Source of the DNA: a virus
Lineage: Duplodnaviria; Caudoviricetes
Reading direction: 5' to 3' (one strand)
Virus record (IMG/VR): IMGVR_UViG_3300044846_003573
DNA: 64,000 bases
This document shows positions 10,369-57,815 of the stretch, one piece after another. Both the position numbers and the translations under genes were made by a program. Position 1 is the first letter of the stretch, and every line of letters begins with the position of its first letter. Under the pieces are notes generated by a model. It did no database searches. It had not been told where the DNA came from and saw nothing but the letters and a program-made list of their open reading frames with translations.

Positions 10369-10989
10369 ATGAACCTACAGGAACACATAAGAAGAGTATT
10401 AAGGGAAGATAAAAAGAGTAAATTCATTATGGATATTGTTGATAAACATGGTGTTTATAAGACGGCAGAAATGATGGGTGTAACTATTACCTATTTATAC
10501 AAAATGTCTGATTTAAAAATTGATGAATTTGTTGCTAAAGAACTATTGGCTGAAAATATTGAAAATGGTAATTTACCTGCAAAATATAAAGGATTTGAAA
10601 TTGAAATAAGTAGTGATGATGTGTTTTATTGGGCAAGGCAGTTTAAATCGGGACACTATCCACCTAATGTATTAGAAAAAATATGGGTAATGGCAACACC
10701 TTTTTTCGCAACTGCTGATTATACACCCGTTGAACTTGATTGGTATGGATTAGAAGATGACTCAAAGAAACCTAATGTAGGAATATACGATACAAGTGGT
10801 GATGGTGATTATTTTGTGGAACTTACACATAATACACATAATGGTAATTATTTTTTTAATAGTGTTGATAATTTATTTGATTGGTATAATACGTTTTACT
10901 TACCAGAAGTGTATGAAATAATCTTGGATAGATTCATACCTGAAGTCCAAGAAGACACAGATGAAAGACTTAGAGATAAAAATACTTAA
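10369..10989 (+). CDS. MNLQE-leader protein, unknown function
   Basis: Starts MNLQEHIRRVLRED. Confidence 0.7.
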   Translation: MNLQEHIRRVLREDKKSKFIMDIVDKHGVYKTAEMMGVTITYLYKMSDLKIDEFVAKELLAENIENGNLPAKYKGFEIEISSDDVFYWARQFKSGHYPPNVLEKIWVMATPFFATADYTPVELDWYGLEDDSKKPNVGIYDTSGDGDYFVELTHNTHNGNYFFNSVDNLFDWYNTFYLPEVYEIILDRFIPEVQEDTDERLRDKNT

Positions 10990-11026
10990 GATACGGACTT
11001 AGGACCGTTGTAGTTTAGGCTACATT

Positions 11027-11057
11027 AACCCCATTGAATTCGCTACTCAGTGGGGTT
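11027..11057. terminator. Bidirectional terminator overlapping the stop of the array gene
   Basis: aaccccattga-attcgctac-tcagtggggtt between convergent genes. Confidence 0.65.
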
Positions 11058-11777
11058 TTCATTTAAGACATCTTCCACCACTGGTGAATTACATGTACGT
11101 GATGTGTGTGTTGTAGTTACCTTATGATTTAGGACTTCTTTCACCTCACTGAGAACAATAGTGGGTCTACAATAGGTTTTAGACACCTTATGATTTAATA
11201 CCTTCTCCACCATATTCGGAAACGGCGGTGTATTGAATGATATTGTAGACACCTTATGATTTAATGCCTTTTCCACCAAAACCACTTGTTCCGCATTCGT
11301 CGTTTGTGTTGTAGATACCTTATGATTTAATACATCTTCCACCAAGAAACCTTCGTTACCGATATCGTTTTGCGTTGTGAATACCTTATAATTTAATACC
11401 TCTTCCATCTTCACATTTGCCTTCATGCCCATATAAACAGTTGTAGATACCTTATGATTTAATACCTCTTCCACCTCATCATACTTTTTCTCCGCACACA
11501 ATTCAGTTGTGGGCACCTTATGATTTAATACCTCTTCCACCCAAGAAGCGAGTATTGGTTCAAAATCTTTGGGTTCCAATGAGAAAATGGTAAAAAAACT
11601 ATTAAAGAAATAATATCTCCACCACAAACGACCACTCTTTTCAAATTCAAAATACCAATGCTCCTTTTCTCGGTCAATTAACCATATAGAATCTTTATAT
11701 GGGATTATCTCCACATTACCTAATTCTTTGTATAGTTGTTTGAATACAACCTGTTTTAATCTATCAGTTACTTTCAT
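11043..11777 (-). CDS. Array gene A: about 79-aa conserved N-domain plus 22-aa periodic array (VEEVLNHKVSTT + 10 variable aa)
   Basis: ORF track; N-domain shared with three paralogs. Confidence 0.85.
   Translation of the reverse strand: MKVTDRLKQVVFKQLYKELGNVEIIPYKDSIWLIDREKEHWYFEFEKSGRLWWRYYFFNSFFTIFSLEPKDFEPILASWVEEVLNHKVPTTELCAEKKYDEVEEVLNHKVSTTVYMGMKANVKMEEVLNYKVFTTQNDIGNEGFLVEDVLNHKVSTTQTTNAEQVVLVEKALNHKVSTISFNTPPFPNMVEKVLNHKVSKTYCRPTIVLSEVKEVLNHKVTTTHTSRTCNSPVVEDVLNENPTE
11061..11541 (-). CRISPR. CRISPR-like array A inside CDS: 7 full 36-bp repeats + 1 partial, 7 spacers of 30 bp (structure certain, CRISPR function unproven)
   Basis: Repeats start on + strand at 11110, 11176, 11242, 11308, 11374, 11440, 11506 (period 66); consensus GTTGTRGATACCTTATGATTTAATACCTCTTCCACC. 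Confidence 0.6.
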
Positions 11778-12507
11778 TTTCTTTTTTGTTGTTTAATGCC
11801 TCATCTACCGATTCCGCTCTTCTTGAGATGAATTCTTCCGTTTTGGATACCTTACGATTCAATATATCTTCCACCAAAAAGTTTCCTTCACCTACGTCAC
11901 GGACTGTTTTGGATACCTTAATATCCAATACCTCTTCCATCTCAAGATTACCTCTTGGGTGGAGATACTCCGTTGTAGATACCTTACGATTCAATACCTG
12001 TTCCACCAAATAGTTGTTAGATAAGGTCATGTTTTTTGTTGTGGATACCTTACTATTCAATACCTCTTCCATCATATCATTCGAAGTGAAACTGAATTGC
12101 TGAGTTGTGGATACCTTACTATTCAATACCTCTTCCACCCCTTGCTTAAAACTTCTGAAACGGCTTGCAGTTGTGGATACCTTACTATTCAATACCTCTT
12201 CCACCCCACCATCCATGACATATTGCGTGCTATCTGTTGTGGATACCTTACTATTCAATACCTCTTCCACCCAAGATGAAATAATTGGTTCAAAATCTTT
12301 GGACTCCAAAGAGAAAAAAGAAAAGAAAGATTTGAAATAATCATATCTCCAATATAAACATCCACTTTCAGTTAGTTGGAAATACCAGTATTTTTCTTCT
12401 CTATCAATAAACCAATAACTGTATTGGGTAGGGATAATTTCCACATTACCTAATTCTTTGTATAGTTGTTTGAATATGAGTTGTTTTAATCTATCCGTTA
12501 CTTTCAT
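11764..12507 (-). CDS. Array gene B
   Basis: ORF track; same architecture, repeat variants NSK/NRK. Confidence 0.85.
   Translation of the reverse strand: MKVTDRLKQLIFKQLYKELGNVEIIPTQYSYWFIDREEKYWYFQLTESGCLYWRYDYFKSFFSFFSLESKDFEPIISSWVEEVLNSKVSTTDSTQYVMDGGVEEVLNSKVSTTASRFRSFKQGVEEVLNSKVSTTQQFSFTSNDMMEEVLNSKVSTTKNMTLSNNYLVEQVLNRKVSTTEYLHPRGNLEMEEVLDIKVSKTVRDVGEGNFLVEDILNRKVSKTEEFISRRAESVDEALNNKKENESN
11791..12271 (-). CRISPR. CRISPR-like array B inside CDS: 7 full repeats + 1 partial, 7 spacers of 30 bp
   Basis: Repeats start at 11840, 11906, 11972, 12038, 12104, 12170, 12236; variant GTTGTGGATACCTTACTATTCAATACCTCTTCCACC. Confidence 0.6.
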
Positions 12508-13195
12508 TTTCTTTTTTATTGTTTAATGCCTTTTTCACCCAAACACTATTTAATACTTCTTCCACTGACCTTTCGGAAAACAAGGAATTATTTTTAGTTG
12601 TAGATACCCTACTATCTAATACTTTTTTTACCTTTCTTTTTTGGGCGGCGTCTACTTCAAAAGTTTCGGATACCTTATGATTTAAGACCTCTTCCACCCA
12701 CTTTGCTGTTACAGTAGTTTTCTCTTCAGTTGTGGATACCTTATGATTTAATACCTCTTCCACCAGAGGAAATTCGTCAATTACAAACATTTTTGTTGTG
12801 GATACCTTATGATTTAAGACCTCTTCCACCTGAAGTAAGCGGTGGGCCAATGTATTACCTGTTGTGGATACCTTATGATTTAATACCTCTTCCACCTTAT
12901 TGTCTCGGCGTACGGAAGGTATACGAGTTGTGGATACCTTATGATTTAAGACCTCTTCCACCCAAGAAGATATTATTGGTTCAAACTCACTCTGTTCCAA
13001 AGAGAAAATGCTGAAAAACGATGGGAAGAATGAGTATCTCCAAAATAAACATCCCTCTTTAGACAACTGAAAATACCAATAACAATTTTCCCTATCAATG
13101 AACCATACAGAGTCTTTATATGGGATTATCTCCGCATTACCTAACTCTTTGTATAGGTGTTTGAATATGAGTTGTTTTAGCTTATCTGTAACCAT
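12491..13195 (-). CDS. Array gene C
   Basis: ORF track, start moved to ATG at 13195; TATCTTTG just upstream. Confidence 0.85.
   Translation of the reverse strand: MVTDKLKQLIFKHLYKELGNAEIIPYKDSVWFIDRENCYWYFQLSKEGCLFWRYSFFPSFFSIFSLEQSEFEPIISSWVEEVLNHKVSTTRIPSVRRDNKVEEVLNHKVSTTGNTLAHRLLQVEEVLNHKVSTTKMFVIDEFPLVEEVLNHKVSTTEEKTTVTAKWVEEVLNHKVSETFEVDAAQKRKVKKVLDSRVSTTKNNSLFSERSVEEVLNSVWVKKALNNKKENESNG
12545..12962 (-). CRISPR. CRISPR-like array C inside CDS: 6 full repeats + partial, 6 spacers of 30 bp
   Basis: Repeats start at 12597, 12663, 12729, 12795, 12861, 12927. Confidence 0.6.
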
Positions 13196-13231
13196 AAGCA
13201 CAAAGATACAAAAAAACTTTGAAAATACAAA

Positions 13232-13570
13232 TTAATTTTCAGACGGTAATTTTAACGACCATTGGGAGCTCATTATCTTGTTGGACATTTGACCCTCCAA
13301 ATTCAGTTTTTTCTTAACCCATTGTCCAATAATTCTGGTAGATTGATAACTGTTAAGAGAAAAGAAGGAAGAAATTGCTTCAATTAAACCTTTATAGATA
13401 AAACACAATTCATTATTGGAATGATTACCACCATATTGAATTTGAGCAGACTCATCTTTAGGATATGAAAAATATATACTGGCACCAGTTTTAGTTATAT
13501 TGAAATCCTGACTATCAAGATACCTGAATATTACTTTATCTAATTGTGATTCTGTGATTAAATATTTCAT
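13232..13570 (-). CDS. MKYLITE-family protein
   Basis: MKYLITESQLDKVIFRYLD...SSFFSL...IIGQWV. Confidence 0.75.
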   Translation of the reverse strand: MKYLITESQLDKVIFRYLDSQDFNITKTGASIYFSYPKDESAQIQYGGNHSNNELCFIYKGLIEAISSFFSLNSYQSTRIIGQWVKKKLNLEGQMSNKIMSSQWSLKLPSEN

Positions 13571-13938
13571 GATAATGTTATACTTCTAACTGATTTAACT
13601 TCATAGTCAGGAAAGAACTCATTAAATACATCTGACATAATGAATTTGCCGTGAACTAACCAAATAGGATGAGGAAACGCTGTACCATATACATCGTCAA
13701 AGTTCCTATTATAGTATAAATCACCACTTGGTTTATTATAAACCATTACGGCGTTTTGGTCACTATCAAATAAGTTAAGTCTTAAATCATTTTCAGAATG
13801 TGAATCAACCAAATTTTCAAAATAACGAATCATTTTAGGTTTGAGTCTATTGTATTGTTCCGTATATTCAGAATCTCTCCAAGTTCTTTCAAGTTCGGAT
13901 ATTAAATTATATTGTGACTCGGTAATAATATACTTCAT
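13567..13938 (-). CDS. MKYLITE-leader protein
   Basis: MKYIITESQYNLISE. Confidence 0.7.
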   Translation of the reverse strand: MKYIITESQYNLISELERTWRDSEYTEQYNRLKPKMIRYFENLVDSHSENDLRLNLFDSDQNAVMVYNKPSGDLYYNRNFDDVYGTAFPHPIWLVHGKFIMSDVFNEFFPDYEVKSVRSITLS

Positions 13939-13944
13939 GTAATA

Positions 13945-13964
13945 ATAAATATAATTATATTTAT
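13945..13964. promoter_or_regulatory. Perfect 20-bp palindrome with back-to-back TATTTAT motifs between divergent genes
   Basis: ataaatataattatatttat between ATGs at 13938(-) and 13971(+). Confidence 0.6.
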
Positions 13965-13970
13965 AATATT

Positions 13971-14294
13971 ATGAACCTACAAGAGAATATAAAAAAAGTA
14001 TTAAGGGAAGAAACAGATTTTTCACCACAGTTCAAAAGAAGACTGAATAGATTTAAATCGTTTGTATGGGATAATAATGTAACTAATTATCCATGTGATT
14101 TTGAAAACTTTGAAGCGTTCATGCGTGGTATACAACATGAAATTATGGACATGATTACAGATGGTTCTGATACCGATGGCCCGTTGTCTGATTGGTTAAC
14201 ATATAAAGATGGTGTTACGTATGTAGAAAACTACATGAGGGATGACTTAGAAAAGTTTTATAATAAGCAATGTGTTGATGTCTTATACGTATAA
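13971..14294 (+). CDS. MNLQE-leader protein
   Basis: MNLQENIKKVLREE. Confidence 0.7.
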   Translation: MNLQENIKKVLREETDFSPQFKRRLNRFKSFVWDNNVTNYPCDFENFEAFMRGIQHEIMDMITDGSDTDGPLSDWLTYKDGVTYVENYMRDDLEKFYNKQCVDVLYV

Positions 14295-14639
14295 ATCAAG
14301 AAATTGTTCAATTGATATTCCAAGACCTGAGATACCAAAAAAGTTCATAAAGTCGGATTCATCCCAAGTATCACATCCGTTATTAATAATCCAAGATTGA
14401 CCTGTGGCATAATTCATCTGATAAAGTAAATCATAACTATTATCTAATTTTATCAGATACATCGGACCATAATTGTCCATATTAAATCTTCTTTGCATAC
14501 TATTATAACTAATACACTCATCAAAAATTATCATTACATCAGTTAAATCTGGGTCAAACTCAACACGACCTGTCAGGTCAATATTAAACTTGTCTTTAAT
14601 GAATGTTTTTAATTTAGATTCGGTGATAAGATATTTCAT
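14283..14639 (-). CDS. MKYLITE-leader protein
   Basis: MKYLITESKL. Confidence 0.7.
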   Translation of the reverse strand: MKYLITESKLKTFIKDKFNIDLTGRVEFDPDLTDVMIIFDECISYNSMQRRFNMDNYGPMYLIKLDNSYDLLYQMNYATGQSWIINNGCDTWDESDFMNFFGISGLGISIEQFLDLYV

Positions 14640-14655
14640 TATATATAAATATTAG

Positions 14656-15066
14656 TTAACAATTTCCTGTATTATAAACCTCAATATTGTGAACACTAAT
14701 TAGACCGCCACCGAACTGATATAAAGCCTTAGAAATAACATCTCTATACATACTTCTTGTACCTTCCTCATAGATATACCTTCCCACATTTGCAGGAGCT
14801 GGCTTAGGTATGTAGACGACCAAATTCATAGAGTCACGAGTGGGGATGATATTATAACTACAATACATCAAGACGGTTGAGATATCATTTTCAAGTATAG
14901 TTTTTGTTAGAAAGATAATATCTTCTCTTGTTCCTTTAAGACCAATCTCATCAATAATATCTTCAGGTTCCTTATCAGTCATTTTACACAGAGTACGCAT
15001 ACCAAATTTCTCTAATAAGGGTTTAAGAGTTTTGTTATATTGATTCTCAGTGATTAAGTATTTCAT
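14656..15066 (-). CDS. MKYLITE-leader protein
   Basis: MKYLITENQY. Confidence 0.7.
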   Translation of the reverse strand: MKYLITENQYNKTLKPLLEKFGMRTLCKMTDKEPEDIIDEIGLKGTREDIIFLTKTILENDISTVLMYCSYNIIPTRDSMNLVVYIPKPAPANVGRYIYEEGTRSMYRDVISKALYQFGGGLISVHNIEVYNTGNC

Positions 15067-15078
15067 TATATGTAAATA

Positions 15079-15411
15079 TTAGTTATAGTGAACCTTCAAA
15101 ACTTCGGACTTGCTAAAGACAACCCATTGTGAGTAACTGACTTCCATTTGTAGGGTATTTCCAACCCAATTACCAATAATCTTTTTAGAGCGGACTTCAT
15201 CTAAAGAAAATAATACAGAGATGTCCTCAATTAAATTTAAGTTTATCTGACAAACACCATTTTTTTTATTATATCTAATTTGGGCATGTTCATCTTCTTC
15301 TGAATTAACAAAGAATATATTACTACTTGTTTCAATCTGAATAAAGTTCTGGCTATCCAAATATCTAAAGATTACTCTGTCTAATTGTGATTCGGTGATA
15401 AGGTATTTCAT
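15079..15411 (-). CDS. MKYLITE-family protein (WVxNTLQM subfamily)
   Basis: MKYLITESQLDRVIFRYLD...IGNWVGNTLQMEVSYS. Confidence 0.75.
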   Translation of the reverse strand: MKYLITESQLDRVIFRYLDSQNFIQIETSSNIFFVNSEEDEHAQIRYNKKNGVCQINLNLIEDISVLFSLDEVRSKKIIGNWVGNTLQMEVSYSQWVVFSKSEVLKVHYN

Positions 15412-15414
15412 ATA

Positions 15415-15735
15415 TTAATAATCAAAAAACATAACATCAACATCAAATGCTTTACTAAACCAATCAGAAATGAATTTACCTGATTGCTCTTTATCAAGTG
15501 GATACATGGATGAAAACTTATCTAAAAAAGATTCATCAATATATAATCTACCATCGCTGTGGTCAAACTCCATTAAAATAAAAAAATCAGGGCCTCTTTC
15601 AGGGCTATATATATTAATGAAATCACTATCTGATGTTCTATCATAATCTAATAATTTATTTAACTCAGATATCATTAAATTATTTATTACCGATTTGACT
15701 TTATCTAATTGTGATTCGGTGATGAGGTATTTCAT
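15415..15735 (-). CDS. MKYLITE-leader protein
   Basis: Start moved to ATG at 15735. Confidence 0.7.
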   Translation of the reverse strand: MKYLITESQLDKVKSVINNLMISELNKLLDYDRTSDSDFINIYSPERGPDFFILMEFDHSDGRLYIDESFLDKFSSMYPLDKEQSGKFISDWFSKAFDVDVMFFDY

Positions 15736-15768
15736 ATAAAATATAAATATAATCATATTTATAATAAT

Positions 15769-16098
15769 ATGAACTTAAAAGAATCTATAAAAAGAATACT
15801 GAGGGAAGAACTATCGGCGAGAATTAAAAGAAGACTTTCTAATGATGAAATGGAAAATGAGTTTCTTGAATCTTTTGAAGGCGCTTATCGTCTTACAAAA
15901 GACAGAAAGGTTTTAAGTTCACATTTTTTAGATGAGTTAGTCTACACAACAATAACCTTTATGATGGATGGGGTACATTGGAGATTTGTTAGTACATTAC
16001 CTGAAGATGAATTTTGGTATGATGATATACACCAAGGATTAGAAAATCATTATAGAAAAAGAATTACACGGATGTATAATGAAAGAAAAGGTTTTTAA
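15769..16098 (+). CDS. MNLQE-leader protein
   Basis: MNLKESIKRILREE. Confidence 0.7.
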   Translation: MNLKESIKRILREELSARIKRRLSNDEMENEFLESFEGAYRLTKDRKVLSSHFLDELVYTTITFMMDGVHWRFVSTLPEDEFWYDDIHQGLENHYRKRITRMYNERKGF

Positions 16099-16101
16099 AG
16101 A

Positions 16102-16380
16102 TTAATTAGAGTTTAAGAATTTGAGTAACGCTCTAATATATTCGGAACGTTTATTATAGAATTCAGTATCATCATCATATTGAAAAAACTCTTCACCTCT
16201 ATGTCTATCAACGAACTTTTCAATTAATTCATAAGCGTAGTCATCTCTGTCGGCGGAATCTTCAAAATCTTCTTCATCCATAATGTAGTTATAATCATCC
16301 CTAAGTGATTCCAATTCATCCATTGTAAACCTCCTAAGTAAAAATGCTTCTAACTGTGATTCTGTAATTAAGTATTTCAT
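16102..16380 (-). CDS. MKYLITE-leader acidic protein
   Basis: MKYLITESQLE; D/E-rich. Confidence 0.7.
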   Translation of the reverse strand: MKYLITESQLEAFLLRRFTMDELESLRDDYNYIMDEEDFEDSADRDDYAYELIEKFVDRHRGEEFFQYDDDTEFYNKRSEYIRALLKFLNSN

Positions 16381-16733
16381 TATTCGTTAACCATTAATCT
16401 GTAATCATATGGACCATCCCAAACCGTACTATCACTAATACCCAAAGTATTATTAACCCATGCTTTGATTATATCCAAACAATCCGATTTATCAATGGAG
16501 AAGAAGGTAGATAATTTATCAGTCAAATCAGAATTTACAAACACCCAATTCCTAACTTCACCAAAAGCGTTATTAGTATAAACACTAATCTGTGATTCCC
16601 TATCTGACTCACTGTTTAAGAAATATATATAATTGCTGAATTTCTTCTTGTTGTCATACATCACAAAGTCCTGAATATCAAGATACTTAAAGATTACTTT
16701 CTCTAATTTTGATTCGGTGATAAGGTATTTCAT
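16380..16733 (-). CDS. MKYLITE-family protein
   Basis: MKYLITESKLEKVIFKYLD...FFSID...WVNNTL. Confidence 0.75.
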   Translation of the reverse strand: MKYLITESKLEKVIFKYLDIQDFVMYDNKKKFSNYIYFLNSESDRESQISVYTNNAFGEVRNWVFVNSDLTDKLSTFFSIDKSDCLDIIKAWVNNTLGISDSTVWDGPYDYRLMVNE

Positions 16734-17068
16734 TATATATAAATATTCTTAGGTATTTTCAACCAAGACTGGGTCATCAAACCAGCCTTGGTGGTATTTG
16801 TAACTTTCATTTGTAGGGTATTCCCAACCCACCTACCAATAGCCGATTCAGAATCAGATTTGTCCAAAGAAAATAACGATGAGATGTTCTTGATTAATTC
16901 GGGACTTATTACGCAACCAAAATTACCATTTTTGATTTGAGCATATTCATCATCTTCAGAGTTAACGAAGTATACTAAAAGACCTATTTTAATTTGAATA
17001 AAATCTTGATGGTTCAAGTAAATAAAGATTGCTCTATCTAATTGTGATTCGGTGATAAGGTATTTCAT
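16733..17068 (-). CDS. MKYLITE-family protein (WVxNTLQM subfamily)
   Basis: ...AIGRWVGNTLQMKVTNT + 10 aa + LKIP. Confidence 0.75.
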   Translation of the reverse strand: MKYLITESQLDRAIFIYLNHQDFIQIKIGLLVYFVNSEDDEYAQIKNGNFGCVISPELIKNISSLFSLDKSDSESAIGRWVGNTLQMKVTNTTKAGLMTQSWLKIPKNIYI

Positions 17069-17080
17069 TATATATAAGTA

Positions 17081-17395
17081 TTAGTTAGGTGCTCTCAATC
17101 GTTCAGTGGGTAGGGTGTAAGAAATCTTTATTTGGAGAGTATCACTAACCCAACTACCAATAACTTCTTTTGAATCTAAATAATGTAAAGAAAATAAAGA
17201 AGAAATCTCATCAATTAATTTAGTGGATATATAACACCATTCATTAGTTATACTAGATTTAATTTGAGCGTATTCGTCACCTTCTGAATTAATAAAGTAT
17301 ACACCACCATTTTTCTCAATCTGAATAAAATCCTGATTATCCAAGTACTTAAAGATTACCTGATTTAATTTAGATTCTGTTATAAGGTATTTCAT
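17081..17395 (-). CDS. MKYLITE-family protein
   Basis: Start moved to ATG at 17395; ...VIGSWVSDTLQIKISYT. Confidence 0.75.
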   Translation of the reverse strand: MKYLITESKLNQVIFKYLDNQDFIQIEKNGGVYFINSEGDEYAQIKSSITNEWCYISTKLIDEISSLFSLHYLDSKEVIGSWVSDTLQIKISYTLPTERLRAPN

Positions 17396-17502
17396 TATAT
17401 ATAAATACAAAGATACACATAAAACTGAACAATACATATTGGGTTAATAATTTAATAAGAATATGATAATATGGTTTGAGGTTGTTTTTAATACTTATTA
17501 TT

Positions 17503-18210
17503 ATGGATTTATCAAAGTTTTTAACCATAGTAATCCCTTGTAAGAACGAGGGCAAGATAATAGAACAAACGTTGTCCTTATTAAACTTTCAAAAGGGAAT
17601 ACAAGATGTTAGAGTTATTGTTTGTGATTCATCGGATGATGATTATACATCCTATTCTTTGGAAAATAGGAGAACAGATTATTTTAATCTACAGATTATT
17701 TCAGGAGGACTTCCGTCTGTTGCAAGAAATAAGGGGGCTGAGAATGTGGAAACACCTTATGTTTTATTTTTGGATGCTGACATATTCTTATTGGATTTCA
17801 ACATATTAAACAATTGTATATGGGAGTTCTTATTACATAATACAGATTTGATTACATGTAAGGTAAGGTCAACGACAGGTGAGTATAATAGTATATTCAG
17901 ATTGTTTGATACAATACAAAAGGTATTTAAACCAATCACGCCATTTTGTCTTGGTGGGTTCATGATGGTAAAGAAAGAAGTATATGATACAATCGGTGGG
18001 TTTGATGAAAACGCAAGAGTTGCCGAGGATTATCTATTCTCCAAACAAGTTAAACCAAGCAAGTTTTATATCATGAATACGACGGTATTCACAAGTCCAA
18101 GAAGGTTCAAACAGAAAGGGGTGTGGTATATGTTAAAACTTATGGTTAGTTCATTCTTCAACAGAAACAATAAAAATCATTTTGAGGATGATAAAGGATA
18201 CTGGGAATGA
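17503..18210 (+). CDS. Glycosyltransferase family 2
   Basis: TIVIPCKNEG, VIVCDSSDD, ARNKGA, YVLFLDAD, GGFDE...AED. Confidence 0.85.
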   Translation: MDLSKFLTIVIPCKNEGKIIEQTLSLLNFQKGIQDVRVIVCDSSDDDYTSYSLENRRTDYFNLQIISGGLPSVARNKGAENVETPYVLFLDADIFLLDFNILNNCIWEFLLHNTDLITCKVRSTTGEYNSIFRLFDTIQKVFKPITPFCLGGFMMVKKEVYDTIGGFDENARVAEDYLFSKQVKPSKFYIMNTTVFTSPRRFKQKGVWYMLKLMVSSFFNRNNKNHFEDDKGYWE

Positions 18211-18923
18211 ATAATTGGAAAACAATAATCATGAGTGATTTACACTTAGGAGCAAGACAATCACAGACAGATAAGATAATAAGTTTCTTGGATAATAACA
18301 CAACAGAAAAACTAATACTGAACGGTGATATTATAGATGGTTGGGCTCTTAAAGGTAATGGTAAATGGACGAAGGATTGTACCAAGATATTCAGGAAGTT
18401 CATGAAGATGTCTGAGAAGAATACAAAGGTAATTTATATAAGAGGAAACCACGATGACTTCCTAAAAGATTTTATTCCATTTAAATTAAACAACATTAGG
18501 ATTGTAAGAAAGTATATACATAATGGTATTGACGGAAGAAAGTATTTTTGTTTTCACGGGGATGTATTGGATTTCGTTATAATGGAAGCGAGGTGGTTAG
18601 CAGTAATCGGTGGATGGTCATATGATATTGTCATTAAGTTTAATACTCTATATAACAAAATAAGAAAGTGGTTTAACTTACCATATCATTCATTGGCAAA
18701 CACAATAAAACAATCAGTAAAAGGGGCAATTAACTTTGTATCTGATTTTGAACAAAACGCGAAAGGTCTAACAAAACAAAAGGGATATGATGTTGCGGTG
18801 TGTGGACATATTCATCACCCGAAGATAGAGAATGACTATATGAACTCAGGAGACTTTTGTGAGAACTCTACATGTCTTGTAGAAGATTATAACGGGGAGT
18901 GGAAGATTATTACTATTAGTTAG
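18207..18923 (+). CDS. Calcineurin-like metallophosphoesterase, UDP-2,3-diacylglucosamine hydrolase (LpxH)-like
   Basis: SDLHLG, LNGDIIDGW, RGNHDD, FHGD, CGHIHHP, YMNSGDF. Confidence 0.85.
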   Translation: MNNWKTIIMSDLHLGARQSQTDKIISFLDNNTTEKLILNGDIIDGWALKGNGKWTKDCTKIFRKFMKMSEKNTKVIYIRGNHDDFLKDFIPFKLNNIRIVRKYIHNGIDGRKYFCFHGDVLDFVIMEARWLAVIGGWSYDIVIKFNTLYNKIRKWFNLPYHSLANTIKQSVKGAINFVSDFEQNAKGLTKQKGYDVAVCGHIHHPKIENDYMNSGDFCENSTCLVEDYNGEWKIITIS

Positions 18924-19245
18924 GTATTTTAAACAAATTGTTCACATCGTGAAAGACCAAACGGGTATAAGTAACCCTCATTTGTAGAGTATTTTCAACC
19001 CATCTACCGATAACTTCCTTAGAATCATATATGTCCAAAGAAAAGAAAGAAGAAATTTCGTAAATTAATCCATGGCGTATATAACACCAACCATCGTTTC
19101 TATCATATCTGATTTGGGCATATTTATCATCTTCCGAATTAACAAAGTATATTGCGTTTCCTCTTTTAATCTGAATAAAGTTCTTAATATCCAAATATCT
19201 AAAGATTACTCTGTCTAATTGTGATTCTGTGATAAGATATTTCAT
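18916..19245 (-). CDS. MKYLITE-family protein (WVxNTLQM subfamily)
   Basis: ...VIGRWVENTLQMRVTYT + 10 aa + FKIPN. Confidence 0.75.
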   Translation of the reverse strand: MKYLITESQLDRVIFRYLDIKNFIQIKRGNAIYFVNSEDDKYAQIRYDRNDGWCYIRHGLIYEISSFFSLDIYDSKEVIGRWVENTLQMRVTYTRLVFHDVNNLFKIPN

Positions 19246-19275
19246 TACATATAAATATCATAAAGATAATAACTA

Positions 19276-20070
19276 TTATTGATTTAAGACCTGTTCCATC
19301 ACATAGTTCATAACAGACATTTCTACATCCGTTGTACATTCCTTATGATTTAATACCTCTTCCACCCCTCTTGTGAAGGGTCCAGAATATGCTTCCAATG
19401 TTGATACCTTATGATTTAATACCTCTTCTACCTCAATTTTTCCAACGTAATCAAGTGAATCGGTTGTAGATACCTTATGATTTAATACTTCTTCCACCAA
19501 TGAATGTTCGGGGTATTTGAGAATGGTAGTTGTAGACACCTTAACATTATGACTTAATACATCTTCCACCCGTGTTCGGATATGAGCATTGTGAGTATTA
19601 GTTGTGGATACCTTACTATTCAATACCTCTTCCACCTTCCAAGGAACACGAACTTTAACATCGCACGTTGTGGATACCTTATGATTTAATACATCTTCCA
19701 CCATCATGCTTTCAACACCGCTACCTGTCACGGTTGTAGATACCTTATGATTTAAGACCTCTTCCACCTTGTCCGTTGTAATTGGAAGTGGAATGAAGGT
19801 TGTGGATACCTTATGATTTAAGACCTCTTCCACCCAAGAAGATAGAACAGGACAAAAATCATCCAAACTCATGGAGAATATTTGAAAAAACGAATTAAAA
19901 AAATCGTATCTCCACCATAAAGTACCTGACTCATCAAGTTCAAAGTACCAGTATTTATTATCCCTATTAATAAACCATATAGACCCATTATAAGGAATAA
20001 TCTCACAATCACCCAACTCTTTATATAGGTGTTTAAAAATAAGTTGTTTTAATCTATCTGTAATAACCAT
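19276..20070 (-). CDS. Array gene D
   Basis: ORF track; same N-domain and 22-aa array; TATATTTG at 20075-20082 upstream. Confidence 0.85.
   Translation of the reverse strand: MVITDRLKQLIFKHLYKELGDCEIIPYNGSIWFINRDNKYWYFELDESGTLWWRYDFFNSFFQIFSMSLDDFCPVLSSWVEEVLNHKVSTTFIPLPITTDKVEEVLNHKVSTTVTGSGVESMMVEDVLNHKVSTTCDVKVRVPWKVEEVLNSKVSTTNTHNAHIRTRVEDVLSHNVKVSTTTILKYPEHSLVEEVLNHKVSTTDSLDYVGKIEVEEVLNHKVSTLEAYSGPFTRGVEEVLNHKECTTDVEMSVMNYVMEQVLNQ
19281..19834 (-). CRISPR. CRISPR-like array D inside CDS: 8 full repeats (one with a 6-bp insertion) + partial, 8 spacers of 30 bp
   Basis: Repeats start at 19331, 19397, 19463, 19529 (42 bp), 19601, 19667, 19733, 19799. Confidence 0.6.
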
Positions 20071-20885
20071 AGAGCAAATATAGTAAGAAATTATGAACTA
20101 AACAAACTCATTCCCCCATTCCACTATCGTGTCGTTCCATTCCCCTTCGGGTCATTACACTAATGGGTTCATTCATTTGTTTACTTCCTAATTTCATCAG
20201 GTCAAGAACTTCCTAATTTCCCCTATTGTATGAATCTATAATTAACGTACAACACTAATCTATAATAATCCCCCATAATGAAAGACACATACTATGAAGG
20301 GACATAACATATTACTGTTAATGGTATTGTACCCCATCGGGATAATGAAATACCCTAAAGGGTATATAAGATGATATTAGTATACCTGTTAGGGTATAAA
20401 ATATATGGTGGAATGTGAAAGGGACAATGTTCTTTATAGGGAACATAACCCTACAGGGTTATCCCTTATATAACACATTATGTCCCACTTTTTACCACCA
20501 CTATAATTGTCCATATCATGTGTCTATATGGTAAGGGGAAATCTTAAAAACCCCCTTGAAGACACTATAAAATACACTTTTCGTTGAAGGATTTAAACAA
20601 CTAAAGTCTGTCCACGCCACTTTATTGTTACATCCTATTTTTAGCTGGAAAATGTATATAGTTAAAAAAACCCTTCTCACACTATCAGGAGGACCACTTT
20701 TTTCACTTTTCATATAACCAAAAACCCCTCTCACATATACGTCAGTGGTAAAAAGTGGGAACATTTACCTATGGACAATATACATAATATACACTATATT
20801 TATAGTTGTTAATATGTCTAAAACCCGTCAAGGGGATTATCCCTTATCTGACGCTCCCCTGACATTTTGACAAAATCAAGAAAAA

Positions 20886-49827: not shown

Positions 49828-51213
49828 ATGAAAAAAGAAATTTTATCAGAAATTAATAGATTTAGAGAAATTAGTGGTTTGCCGTTGTTGATTGAAGGTA
49901 AAATACCTTCATCTTTTATTGACGATTTATCTAAACTTTTTAATAAATCATCAGACGAACTTTTTACGTCACTTGAAAAAAAAGAAATACCTTCATTAGA
50001 AAAAACACTCAAAACCGCTTTAGGTGATGATAGCGTAATTTTCGCTAAAAACTTACAAAAATTAAAAGCCGGAACTCTGTCACCAACATTAGAAGATAAA
50101 TTGTTAGCGTCATTAATAAGAAGTAATGATGATAGAATTAAAAATTTGGTAGAAACTACTTTTATAAAATCAAATCCTGATTTAAATCAAATCATTAATA
50201 GATTTACAAAAAGGGCTGATGGTTCATATTCTGAAATTCAACCAGGGTTAACTTATGATAAATATATTAGTAGAATGTCTCCTGAAAAATATACGGAATA
50301 TGTGAAATTACAAAATCAGTTAATTGACGCAACTGATTTAGGAGTACAAATGAAAAAATATCTAAAAGAAAGATTAGCATCTGAATTAACTTCACTTAAA
50401 ACTAAATCAATTACAACTCCTTCGGTTGAAAATATGTATAAATTATACGAACTACAAGCCAAAAAATTAGGTAAAAAACCAATTCCTATGTCCGATTTAA
50501 AACTAATTGAGGATGATATAATTAATGCTGGTGTAACACAAAAAGAAATGGTTAACTATATGATTGAGTTAAGTGGTGATGAAAAATCATTCTTAGAAAG
50601 AATGAAAATTTTTAGACAAGGTAAGAAAGAACTTGAGGGTATGGCCGGTGACTCTGTTGACGAATTAAAGAAAGGTTTATCAGGTTGGAAGAAAGGTGCG
50701 TTAGTAGTATTAGGACTTGCATTATTAGGTGGTGGTGTTTGGTATAACTGGGATAGGCTTAGATATGGTTCAAACAAAGATGTATGGAAAGAAACTTATA
50801 AAGAATCATTTAGTGATTTACCTAAAAATTTACAAAATTTTATTATTGCAAATTATGCCGGTTCTGCAGGTAGTGACCCAAACATTAAAAAAAATATCAA
50901 AAGTTTATTATTTGATAATGATGTTTTAACTATTACATTTATGGATAATACAAAAAATATTATTAAAAAAGTAACACAAGGAGAGAATGAATATTGGTCA
51001 GTAGTTGAAGGTGAACCTAAAAAAACTGAGGAAGATGAAATAATACCAACAACATATCCTAGAGATATTAATACTTCAACCGACACTAAAATTATAGATA
51101 AAATTAAAACTGATTATGGGTATGACATATCCGATTTTACTTCTGTTAAAGTTATTAGTGATAGTAAAGTTCAATTAGTTTTAAATGGTGAAACATATGA
51201 AATGTCATATTGA
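49828..51213 (+). CDS. Large hypothetical protein with one TM segment
   Basis: MKKEILSEINRFREISG; ALVVLGLALLGGGVWY. Confidence 0.65.
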   Translation: MKKEILSEINRFREISGLPLLIEGKIPSSFIDDLSKLFNKSSDELFTSLEKKEIPSLEKTLKTALGDDSVIFAKNLQKLKAGTLSPTLEDKLLASLIRSNDDRIKNLVETTFIKSNPDLNQIINRFTKRADGSYSEIQPGLTYDKYISRMSPEKYTEYVKLQNQLIDATDLGVQMKKYLKERLASELTSLKTKSITTPSVENMYKLYELQAKKLGKKPIPMSDLKLIEDDIINAGVTQKEMVNYMIELSGDEKSFLERMKIFRQGKKELEGMAGDSVDELKKGLSGWKKGALVVLGLALLGGGVWYNWDRLRYGSNKDVWKETYKESFSDLPKNLQNFIIANYAGSAGSDPNIKKNIKSLLFDNDVLTITFMDNTKNIIKKVTQGENEYWSVVEGEPKKTEEDEIIPTTYPRDINTSTDTKIIDKIKTDYGYDISDFTSVKVISDSKVQLVLNGETYEMSY

Positions 51214-53105
51214 TGGAATATATGAATAAAAATACTCTTTTAATTGAAAAAGAATTACCTAAAAAAGGTGATGGTACAAAAGAATTACCTAAAAAAGGTG
51301 ATGGTACAAAAGAATTGCCTAAAAAAGGTGATAGTACAAAAGAATTACCTAAAAAAGGTGATAGTACAAAAGAATTACCTAAAAAGGATACTCCTGAAAA
51401 AAGTGGTAAGGTTGATGTAACATTAGACCACCCAAAAGACCAAGCTCAAGGTGATGCTTTTAGAGCTTGGATGTCAGTAAATCGCCCGGATTTTAAATGT
51501 GGTAGTGACAAACTTGAAAATAAAAAAGGTATGTCATTTAAAAATAATTGTATAAAACTGGCTTGGAAGGATAACAAAGGAGATTTTTTAAAATTATCAC
51601 CACAACAACAAACTGAATTATCTAAAAAAGTTGAATTTCCAATTAATACTATTGATAGGTCAAATAAATTCAGAAAATGGTTAAAAAGTTTTCGTGTTGG
51701 TTTTTTCAAACAAAAAAATATTAGAGATATTATTTCAAATATCCAAGACGATGCTGATTCTATTAAAATCGCTTGGGAAGAATATGGTAATGAGTTTATT
51801 CAATTTTTACTTAATTCACCTAACTCAGCTTTACAAGCGTTAGGTAAACAAATTAAAGATGAAAACGAAAATTGGTTAAAAACTGGTGAAGGTCTTGATG
51901 TTGGGTTTGAAAAACAAATTGAATCAGAAAAAAGAAAATGCGAGCCTTGGACTTTAGGTAATTTATTTGAAAAAAAATATAAAAGAGAAGGAGTTGATAA
52001 ATTAAATCAAAAGGCTAAAGAATTTATCGAATGGTCAGGTGAAAAAGGTTGGTATGGTAATTTAGTACCATCTGATTTTTGTGGTTTTGATGCCAATGAT
52101 ATTGACTGGGATAATGATGTTTGGATGGATGAAGATAGTGGAGAACATCAAATTTACCAGCATCCAATTGTTAGATTATTGTCGTTACATAAAGTTTGGA
52201 TGAGAGACGAACTTACTCGTGTTGATAGGAAGAGTGATTTATTTACTAAGTTTTTAAAGGATAGTGGTGAAGAAGTTACACCATATGTTTCAGGTGGTAG
52301 AAGTGAAGAAGGACGAACTAAAAACGTTAGACTTTCAGATACACCTGCGGACTCAAGTGCTGAAGTAATTTTATCGGCAGGTGCTAACAGAAATTTATGT
52401 GTTAATTTAAGAAATGCTTTAAAATCATCTTCAGATAGAAGTGAAACAGTTCAAAGGGCTATTCAAATGTGTAATTCAAAAAATTCAAATTGGTTAAAAA
52501 CGGATTTAGAAAGTAGAGTGAAAACTAAATTAAAAGTATTTCAGGAAGGTAAAATGATTAAAGAAACTATTCAAAACAAATTAAAATCAAAGAAGAATGA
52601 AAAATCTTTGAGTACCCTATCAGAACAGTTTAACAAACAAAATTATAGAAAATTCTTCGATACGTTAACTAAATTTAGAAATAATAATATCAATGAAGCA
52701 ACCAATGCAGAATTTGAAAAATCATTTGACGTTGTTTTTCAAGGAAAAGAATCTGAATTTAAAAACAGAGCAATAGAATATATCTTAGGCAAATTGGAAG
52801 TTTCACCATCGTCTGAACTTGGTAAAAGTATTAAATCAGAATTAGATAAAGTATCTGCTAAAGATATGTTTAGAAATGAATATGATGTCCCTGAGGCAAT
52901 ATCAAAAGCAATTGAAACATCTTCACAAACAAATAATGGTGAACAAACGGGATTAAAAGGTATTGTATCCCAATCAATTAAATTTGACGATAAACAAATC
53001 AAACAAGGTGTTAGACAACATCTTCACGATTATATCGAAGGCGTTAAAGATGATATTAAGTCTTTAGAACAAAAATTAAAAAGTTCAATCATAAAAGACA
53101 TCTAA
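51210..53105 (+). CDS. Large hypothetical protein with N-terminal KELPKKGD(G/S)T repeats
   Basis: ORF track. Confidence 0.65.
   Translation: MMEYMNKNTLLIEKELPKKGDGTKELPKKGDGTKELPKKGDSTKELPKKGDSTKELPKKDTPEKSGKVDVTLDHPKDQAQGDAFRAWMSVNRPDFKCGSDKLENKKGMSFKNNCIKLAWKDNKGDFLKLSPQQQTELSKKVEFPINTIDRSNKFRKWLKSFRVGFFKQKNIRDIISNIQDDADSIKIAWEEYGNEFIQFLLNSPNSALQALGKQIKDENENWLKTGEGLDVGFEKQIESEKRKCEPWTLGNLFEKKYKREGVDKLNQKAKEFIEWSGEKGWYGNLVPSDFCGFDANDIDWDNDVWMDEDSGEHQIYQHPIVRLLSLHKVWMRDELTRVDRKSDLFTKFLKDSGEEVTPYVSGGRSEEGRTKNVRLSDTPADSSAEVILSAGANRNLCVNLRNALKSSSDRSETVQRAIQMCNSKNSNWLKTDLESRVKTKLKVFQEGKMIKETIQNKLKSKKNEKSLSTLSEQFNKQNYRKFFDTLTKFRNNNINEATNAEFEKSFDVVFQGKESEFKNRAIEYILGKLEVSPSSELGKSIKSELDKVSAKDMFRNEYDVPEAISKAIETSSQTNNGEQTGLKGIVSQSIKFDDKQIKQGVRQHLHDYIEGVKDDIKSLEQKLKSSIIKDI
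51248..51387 (+). repeat. 30-bp in-frame tandem repeat, 4 full copies + partial
   Basis: aaaagaattacctaaaaaaggtgat(g/a)gtac. Confidence 0.9.
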
Positions 53106-53917: not shown

Positions 53918-54132
53918 TTATGTATTGTATTGTTAAGTATATTAAGGTAGATAAGAAAGAATTACCTGTTATTATTTTAAATTCTCAGGATGAAATTTTA
54001 GAATTTGATGATGAGAATAAAGCTGAAGAATTTAAATCAATTCTTCAATTGAATTCTGACTCAGGTTACAGATACGTTGTCAAGAAAATTTGATGTTGTC
54101 CCAAATTTTGTCTATATTTGTGACAAATAATT

Positions 54133-54209
54133 GCCTTCGTAGCTCAGTAGGATAGAGCAACAGATTTCTAATCTGTGGGTCAGGGGTTCGAATCCCTTCG
54201 GGGGTACCA
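54133..54209 (+). tRNA. tRNA-Arg (anticodon UCU) with encoded CCA
   Basis: GCCTTCG/CGGGGGT acceptor, GCTC-GAGC D arm, ACAGA-TTTCTAA-TCTGT anticodon arm, GGTTCGAATCC T arm, ACCA end. Confidence 0.92.
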
Positions 54210-57420: not shown

Positions 57421-57815
57421 TGGTGGAGATGCGGGGATTCGAACCCCGGTCCAAATATGTCGACCATAAAACACTACACGTTTAGGTCATTGTTTTTCTA
57501 AACAATCCGAAACTTCACAATTCCCTTATTTTATAGTGGTTCGGTTTACTGAGAACTAATCCTCCACTTTGTTCCTTTTCGGATAGAAACCACACCACGG
57601 TACAAGCTTCTGTTGCAAGGTTATATGCTCACCGACCCCGTTGTATACTAATCTTAGATTAGGCTACAGTTACTTCTTCAGTACGGATTAAACCGAGTGT
57701 AGAAAGTTTTGCAATTGTGTTGCCGTTTGTGTTTTAAACCAGTTTTACAGGGTTAGTTTAGCCCCGACGTGCGTTTTATGACAGATTCATACCTGTCAAA
57801 TCCAAAAACATCCCC
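57421..57815 (-). ncRNA. ssrA: tmRNA
   Basis: 5' GGGGATGTTTTTGGATTTGACAGG and 3' GGACCGGGGTTCGAATCCCCGCATCTCCACCA form an alanine-type tRNA-like domain; internal tag ORF; TATCTTTG at 57838-57845 upstream. Confidence 0.9.

Follow-up and report, generated by a model that had tools for sequence, protein, structure and literature searches.

In Flavobacterium columnare, type VI-B CRISPR arrays, which lack a Cas1 of their own, are filled in trans by the type II-C Cas1-Cas2 (PMC8092290). Cas1-Cas2 can also integrate off-target at repeat-like sites (PMC6698737; off-target integration is likewise reported by Nivala, Shipman and Church 2018, as cited in PMC6698737), and viruses carry mini-arrays or solitary repeat units that are intergenic, have repeats identical to those of the host and mostly target related viruses (PMC11656645). 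In this study, we describe a related arrangement in a 64,000-nucleotide (nt) stretch of DNA, hereafter the window, from an uncultured lake phage (Caudoviricetes; IMG/VR record IMGVR_UViG_3300044846_003573). The window holds six minus-strand paralogs of a small gene with a MKYLITE N-terminus, and the 3' end of such genes has the architecture of a mini-array, with a 36-bp repeat, an insert of spacer size and a second repeat, which is complete or reduced to its first 12-20 bases. We regard it as fairly probable that this 3' end is indeed a CRISPR-type mini-array, into which a host integrase of the Cas1-Cas2 type writes inserts that are translated as the protein tail.

The VI-B arrays of Bacteroidota, such as those of F. 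columnare, F. covae and Bergeyella zoohelcum, are likewise built of 36-bp repeats and inserts of some 30 bp, at a period of 65-67 nt, and their repeats begin with GTTG, as does the phage repeat, both having in addition CCCT...AAGG in the core and ACA(A/C)C at the end. In both cases the terminal repeat consists of the 5' part only, the repeat is duplicated as units are gained at the leader-like end, and there is no adjacent cas1. The phage units differ in that they are translated, being located within a protein-coding gene and at its end, have lost the hairpin and are accompanied by neither cas13b nor any other cas gene; moreover, they usually number one to four, and their inserts are centered on 29 nt, more variable in length and depleted of stops in one frame. 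The viral mini-arrays likewise occur in viruses without cas genes, as one or two spacers flanked by CRISPR repeats of the host kind (PMC11656645), whereas the phage repeats are diverged and coding, no targets of the inserts were found, and more than 1250 members are fused to one domain. Off-target integration resembles the phage units in the spacer-sized insertion at a repeat-resembling site, which becomes duplicated, but the known events took place in vitro or in engineered E. coli and are rare and possibly harmful (PMC6698737); in the phages a large gene family has conserved the site in nature, and its product is translated.

Two units of the window had been pointed out in an earlier note on this DNA, and both are found as it described them, each a repeat, a spacer and a partial repeat present as DNA with a period of 65 nt. 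The paralog P6 (18916-19245, an open reading frame (ORF) of 109 residues) ends in a one-spacer mini-array, which comprises a full repeat encoding VENTLQMRVTYT (18964-18999; 30/36 to the family consensus and 23-25/36 to real VI-B repeats), a 29-nt insert encoding RLVFHDVNN (18935-18963), which is found in IMG/VR only in three orthologous contigs, and a truncated terminal repeat (18923-18934; 10/12 to repeat nt 1-12). The latter is translated one base out of frame as (L)FKIP and is followed by the trailer TAACTAA. In P4 (16733-17068, an ORF of 111 residues), the full repeat (VGNTLQMKVTNT; 16793-16828) matches the consensus at 33/36 and the best real VI-B repeat at 24/36; the 29-nt insert (16764-16792; 52% guanine plus cytosine, GC) encodes TKAGLMTQS, has a related copy with three differences in the locus L013 and is otherwise absent from IMG/VR, and the truncated terminal repeat (16752-16763; 11/12) is read as (W)LKIP. 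A third unit, overlooked in the earlier note, lies in P5 (17081-17395), with a repeat at 17114-17149, a 14-nt insert at 17100-17113 and a truncated repeat at 17088-17099 (9/12) with its TAACTAA trailer. The P5 tail LRAPN-stop is a variant of LRIPN-stop, and its short insert, with the trailer intact, looks like an internal deletion of a former insert of 29-31 nt. The label "array-less" previously given to these genes has to be dropped, as they are one-spacer mini-arrays with relatives that carry two to five repeats as DNA. What had been called a half repeat is a real copy of the repeat, of the 5'-retained terminal kind that is typical of real arrays. The units of the other paralogs have decayed: P2 (15079-15411) shows a repeat at 15130-15165 (26/36), a decayed tail, LKVHYN-stop, and no clear second copy; P1 (13232-13570) has kept the domain, with the repeat decayed past recognition and a tail, LKLPSEN-stop, that is possibly the relic of a unit; and P3 (16380-16733) has only WVNNTL left and no unit.

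The same layout is common to more than 1250 homologues in metagenomes, in which a protein of about 110 residues has the 36-bp repeat as the last 12 codons of its domain, followed by a hypervariable insert of 28-32 bp and a second repeat. Among the 120 best homologues, 119 read domain, W, VENTLQM(K/R)VTNT, some 10 unrelated residues and a tail, the tail being L(R/K)IP in 76 and VENT in 9, with 34 proteins ending in the insert or at its end. Two units are present in 13 of these 120, and 112 of their 132 inserts are unique. The paralogs are clustered, with 5-14 of them in each related phage genome.

The repeat behaves as a DNA element that is independent of the reading frame. When the family consensus, GTTGAGAATACCCTACAAATGAAGGTTACAAACACC (short form GTTGAGAATACC...), is read one base later, it gives TTG AGA ATA CCC TAC AAA TGA, that is, LRIPYK-stop, exactly the commonest tail; the LRIPYK-stop and LRIPSK-stop tails, and the L(R/K)IP tail as such, are the repeat shifted by one base. 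Read two bases later, the repeat starts GT-TGA. Both of these shifted frames thus contain a TGA (GT-TGA-G and AAA-TGA-A), and the third is closed by the trailer TAACTAA, so that an insert of any length gives a terminated protein. We collected 183 units, with periods of 65 nt (81 units), 66 nt (63), 67 nt (22) and 64 or 68 nt (13), and the second copy is found in any of the three frames. The idea that a 65-nt period leaves a one-spacer gene and a 66-nt period allows expansion did not survive this survey, since all periods from 64 to 68 nt occur and the frame sets only the point at which translation stops, with no bearing on the growth of the array as DNA. At a period of 67 nt the protein stops at the very start of the second copy (TGA), yet the untranslated rest of the copy is still conserved; in the locus L008 the frame of the gene ends at copy two, and four full copies and a truncated one are present. 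Most of the 33 distinct multi-unit arrays are out of frame past unit 1. With a weight matrix, 108 copies were detected in 0.54 Mb of DNA from related phages, versus 1 in shuffled DNA.

The codons of the repeat (GAG, ACC, CTA/CTC, AAG, GTC, AAC) are atypical or rare for the same genes, and synonymous diversity, which is 0.32-0.37 in the domain, drops to 0.12-0.14 over repeat codons 1-4 and reaches 0.42-0.44 over codons 5-12. The DNA-level constraint therefore lies on the first 12 bases, which are also the bases kept in truncated copies. The synonymous freedom that had been considered for the WVxNTLQM stretch is thus present in codons 5-12, and codons 1-4 (GTT GAG AAT ACC) are held.

The repeat is significantly similar to those of type VI-B systems. 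We scanned 185,579 genomes, one per species, for three consecutive array-spaced repeat ends, two of them with the motif TTTGNAGNGTANNNNCAAC, which was derived both from the phage repeat in minus sense and from Cas13b repeats. This returned 93 arrays, all in Bacteroidota and nearly all with a 66-nt period, and Cas13b (NCBIfam NF038190, E below 1e-170) lies beside the array in five of the seven flanks checked. On the coding strand, an orientation not used in writing the scan motif, the phage consensus matches 77 distinct real repeats at a mean of 22.1/36 and at best at 26/36, whereas the best match of 5000 shuffles averages 12.8 and never exceeds 22 (p<2e-4). Synonymous recodings with the codon usage of the gene itself score 18.1 +/- 1.2, with p=0.0008 for the consensus and p=0.03 and p=0.01 for the two copies of the window, both of which have drifted towards AT. 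The likeness amounts to only about 70% identity (72% at best). In this regard the earlier note fared well: the Cas13b repeat end that it had given, TTTGAAGGGTATTCACAAC, is found exactly in real arrays (e.g., L085, L135 and L144), and the 36-mer, at 22-26/36, stands clear of shuffled controls. The type II-C repeats, with which it had also proposed a comparison, resemble the phage repeat weakly, those of F. columnare and F. aerium scoring 9-17/36, far below those of type VI-B. A search of Rfam (E up to 10) over 10500-20500 gave chance matches only and no CRISPR-DR family. Folding of the phage repeat as RNA yields -1.4 or -3.3 kcal/mol on the two strands (z above 0), compared with -10.9 to -12.2 kcal/mol for real VI-B repeats (z -2.5 to -3.7). 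Three of the real VI-B arrays, those of B. zoohelcum (L104), Capnocytophaga stomatis (L149) and F. covae (L120), have one repeat split after about 20 nt by a conserved insert of about 50 nt, after which the array continues; we believe this to be the "long direct repeat" reported for B. zoohelcum.

The units also behave in the manner of an array. The terminal repeat keeps its 5' part, nt 1-12(-20), on the phage coding strand, as do real VI-B arrays, so that the protein domain occupies the position of a leader. Gain is polar: in each of the six comparisons that were informative, the two arrays have the trailer-proximal insert in common and the additional units adjoin the domain. Adjacent repeats within an array agree at 34.2/36 (34 of 63 pairs are identical) and those of different arrays at 30.2/36, a difference that persists at positions 13-36, which were not fixed by the retrieval pattern (most of the DNA loci, L051-L260, were retrieved by a pattern that fixes repeat nt 1-12). 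Private variants of the repeat are common to both repeats in two-unit proteins. The hypervariability among orthologues, which the earlier note had proposed to test, is borne out for the segment of 29-31 nt, which turns over as a cassette. Unrelated inserts are present even in gene pairs whose domains are 100% identical, the identity of inserts has fallen to the random level (0.26) where that of the domains is below 85%, and the same insert is found behind different neighbors. Unrelated inserts between duplicated resident repeats point to an integrase making staggered cuts, rather than to slippage. One insert lineage, TDAY(R/M)NID. (L016, L031 and L039), persists across diverged paralogs and phages with mostly synonymous changes, and it may be a tail that has become functionally fixed.

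The inserts have the appearance of foreign DNA. Among the 183 units, 166 inserts are unique; their GC content is 0.42 versus 0.32 for the phage, A/T and G/C are equal between the strands, and their composition is nearly flat over the codon positions, whereas that of the domain is strongly structured. Their dinucleotide biases correlate at r=0.87 with those of 862 real VI-B spacers and at r=0.46 with phage DNA. Random untemplated synthesis was ruled out, as these biases are those of natural DNA. A diversity-generating retroelement was likewise rejected, given that five related phage records hold no RVT_1 domain and that the inserts are wholly unrelated to each other, not A-mutated. Within 1.1 Mb of DNA from related phages, every match of at least 20 nt falls in another copy of the arrays, and no clear motif resembling a protospacer-adjacent motif or a ruler was seen at the insert ends.

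Selection acts on the inserts in the frame in which they are translated. In frame 0, which continues that of the preceding repeat, 17% of the inserts contain a stop, mostly in the last two codons, compared with 30-35% in the other five frames and 46% in random sequence of the same composition. This under-representation of in-frame stops indicates that the tail is selected as a peptide. Tryptophan is enriched 2.4-fold and stops stand at 0.21-fold, a pattern that fits a repair of TGA to TGG. In related inserts, synonymous and non-synonymous changes number 17:21 in frame 0, a count dominated by one insert lineage, versus 4:33 and 1:35 in the other frames.

Searches of Pfam and PHROGs with the family gave no match, and 50,697 records of cultured phages contain no homologue. 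The AlphaFold2 model (predicted local distance difference test score 88, predicted template modeling score 0.81) is a small alpha/beta domain whose first six residues are disordered, whose last helix (residues 72-87) ends in WVENTLQM and whose tail is of lower confidence; no meaningful structural match was found in the PDB (Foldseek E above 0.4; best Z 4.5). An I/L-x-E motif, a feature of the capsid-targeting leaders of T4 internal proteins, is present in the MKYLITE N-terminus and also in two further leaders that are shared within the window. In T4, a leader that ends in this motif is removed by the prohead protease and the protein is packaged in the head; the small proteins of the present family are probably loaded into the capsid and may be injected. 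The likeness is that of the N-terminal motif and bears only on the possible purpose of the protein.

The comparison of relatives shows how the tails are renewed. A new insert enters on the domain side together with a duplicate of the repeat of the gene itself, as would be left by an integrase cutting the repeat at either end in the manner of CRISPR adaptation. With each insertion, the last 10 or so residues of the protein are replaced by the translation of the new insert, and the older units are usually pushed out of frame. The type II-C Cas1-Cas2 of the host would carry out this reaction, acting in trans on a phage repeat that is still VI-B-like at its leader-proximal end. The phage might benefit from a changing tail on an injected protein, or from a decoy for the spacer-acquisition machinery of the host. 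We infer both that the writer of the inserts is the Cas1-Cas2 of a Bacteroidota host and that one of these effects, the changing tail or the decoy, is of advantage to the phage.

A number of observations weigh against this proposal. Cas1, Cas2, Cas13b, reverse transcriptase and the rve integrase are all missing from five related phage records, three of them complete, so that the integrase itself is unseen, and the assignment of the host to Bacteroidota would follow from a promoter pattern only. The hairpin of VI-B repeats, which is closed by GUUG/CAAC, has a U-rich loop and is bound by Cas13b, is kept on neither strand of the phage repeat, and no bacterial repeat within three mismatches of it occurs in 401 Bacteroidota genomes, a sample outside of which the true host may lie. 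The lengths of the inserts are broader than those of real arrays, in which 85% of the spacers measure 30 nt. No source of the inserts was found: five inserts searched against IMG/VR returned only their own contig or orthologous copies; none emerged for the 166 inserts from 1.9 Mb of local DNA (BLAST), nor for the four inserts of the locus L173 from 401 Flavobacteriaceae genomes; and 9.1 kb of the window, compared with 401 Flavobacteriales genomes at low sensitivity with two candidates per genome, gave 50 weak matches, none of which overlaps an insert. Finally, the claims on repeat nt 1-12 rest on 44 genes from the protein search, and the first half of the repeat lies within a confidently modeled helix, so that the first copy is in part conserved through a constraint on the protein.

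This last point would also be expected of an ordinary protein tandem repeat, in which a 12-residue structural motif followed by a fast-evolving linker of 10 residues grows and shrinks by replication slippage and recombination under diversifying selection, the CRISPR likeness being a coincidence or a convergence. The depletion of stops in frame 0, the synonymous excess in related inserts, the free synonymous sites in repeat codons 5-12, the missing hairpin and the lack of cas genes in related phage records agree with such an origin as well. It has to account, however, for second copies that are kept as DNA in three frames and past a stop codon, and for duplicated repeats that flank unrelated inserts, which slippage would not give. 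Since, in addition, the inserts have a foreign-like composition without codon periodicity, the likeness to Cas13b repeats exceeds that of both shuffles and synonymous recodings, and real arrays show the same 36+30 geometry, the same 5' retention in the terminal repeat and the same polarity of gain, we consider this explanation very unlikely. A function as RNA, with the units serving as virus-borne mini-arrays or as solitary-repeat decoys (RNA anti-CRISPRs) whose transcripts mis-arm or soak up the Cas13b of the host while translation is incidental, has the precedent of established viral mini-arrays and repeat decoys (PMC11656645). It would be in keeping with a repeat that is related to VI-B repeats in either orientation, with 5-14 copies per phage genome and with the opposite strand, which reads truncated repeat, spacer and full repeat, the order that a Cas13b CRISPR RNA needs. 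The phage repeat, however, does not fold as real repeats do; the repeats of known viral mini-arrays are those of the host, whereas here the best identity is 72% with no near copy in the 401 Bacteroidota genomes; none of the inserts matches a related phage; and selection on the reading frame means that the peptide matters. We thus see an RNA function as distinctly improbable.

Turnover of the cassettes could also proceed without CRISPR enzymes, through an unrecognized phage nuclease or integrase, or through homologous recombination among the repeats of co-infecting phages that shuffles existing inserts. That the phages have no cas genes, that each genome holds many paralogs, that the same insert stands behind different neighbors, that the inserts vary more in length than the spacers of real arrays and that the window contains homing endonuclease genes can all be cited for this scheme. 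Recombination, however, can neither create hundreds of unique inserts nor explain their non-phage composition, and a 36-bp target duplicated around a 30-bp insert, with polar gain and a repeat related to the VI-B repeats of the likely host phylum, leads back to the known adaptation reaction; we therefore hold turnover without CRISPR enzymes to be unlikely, and we retain the mini-array written by a host integrase as our interpretation.

The surroundings of the units give some clues to the phage and its host. The window is jumbo phage DNA of 30% GC, with close relatives among IMG/VR contigs of 200-320 kb from lake metagenomes, and its gene content includes a fusion of PPK2 and lysozyme, a ClpB-like ATPase, glutamine synthetase, a transfer-messenger RNA (tmRNA) and a transfer RNA (tRNA). 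The ClpB-like gene gave no clue to the host, and the 862 real VI-B spacers yield only chance matches of 14-19 nt to phage DNA and hence no host link. The Bacteroidota promoter pattern TTTG-N17-21-TAnnTTTG occurs 13 times in the window versus 5.3 +/- 2.0 times in shuffles (2.5-fold), and none of 100 shuffles reaches 13. The matches (13201-13231, 20075-20106, 54089-54120 and ten more) are plausibly placed, and some lie immediately 5' of the tRNA and of two array genes. The array genes, on the minus strand, are three tandem genes at 11043-13201, in which a distant homologue of the N-domain is followed by in-frame 36+30-bp arrays with a second repeat type, and a fourth in-frame array gene at 19276-20070; the promoter at 13201-13231 lies 5' of the former group and that at 20075-20106 lies 5' of the latter gene. 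The homology that had been proposed between the MKYLITE family and the N-domain of the array genes is borne out as a distant one (21-26% identity, with a common FFSL...W-V-E motif). The MKYLITE paralogs themselves have TATTTAT-like A/T boxes right before the ATG and not promoters of the TTTG-N17-21-TAnnTTTG pattern.

A plus-strand metallophosphoesterase gene (18207-18923) converges on P6 with an overlap of 8 nt, and its stop TAG (18921-18923) adjoins the truncated repeat of P6, so that read-through of the operon would yield an antisense transcript of the unit. Elsewhere in the window, the ORF 35467-37233 holds a polyphosphate kinase 2 domain and a phage lysozyme domain in one frame, the tmRNA gene (tag AKLSTLGLIRTEEVTVA) lies at 57421-57815 and tRNA-Arg(TCT) at 54133-54209. 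The ORF 51210-53105 contains a 30-nt tandem repeat (51248-51385; 4.6 copies, 97% identity) that encodes KELPKKGDST-like units and has no relation to the CRISPR-like repeats.

CRISPR arrays are usually seen as non-coding memory banks. Here, more than 1000 phage genes have the repeat-spacer layout as a translated part of the gene, in phages without a cas gene. We tentatively suggest, as a possibility that we do not press, that spacer integration serves the phage as a device for writing proteins, or is at least tolerated and filtered in this role: the host Cas1-Cas2 would probably write 30 bp of foreign DNA into the 3' ends of a large family of jumbo phage genes for injected proteins, the stops in three frames would turn each insertion into a new C-terminal peptide, and the outcome might be a library of thousands of tails together with a diversion of the adaptation machinery from the arrays of the host. 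If a host integrase does write the inserts, these genes would represent a natural case of CRISPR adaptation that acts on the genome of a virus, a new way of making proteins hypervariable that is distinct from retroelement-based diversification, and possibly a counter-measure against spacer acquisition.

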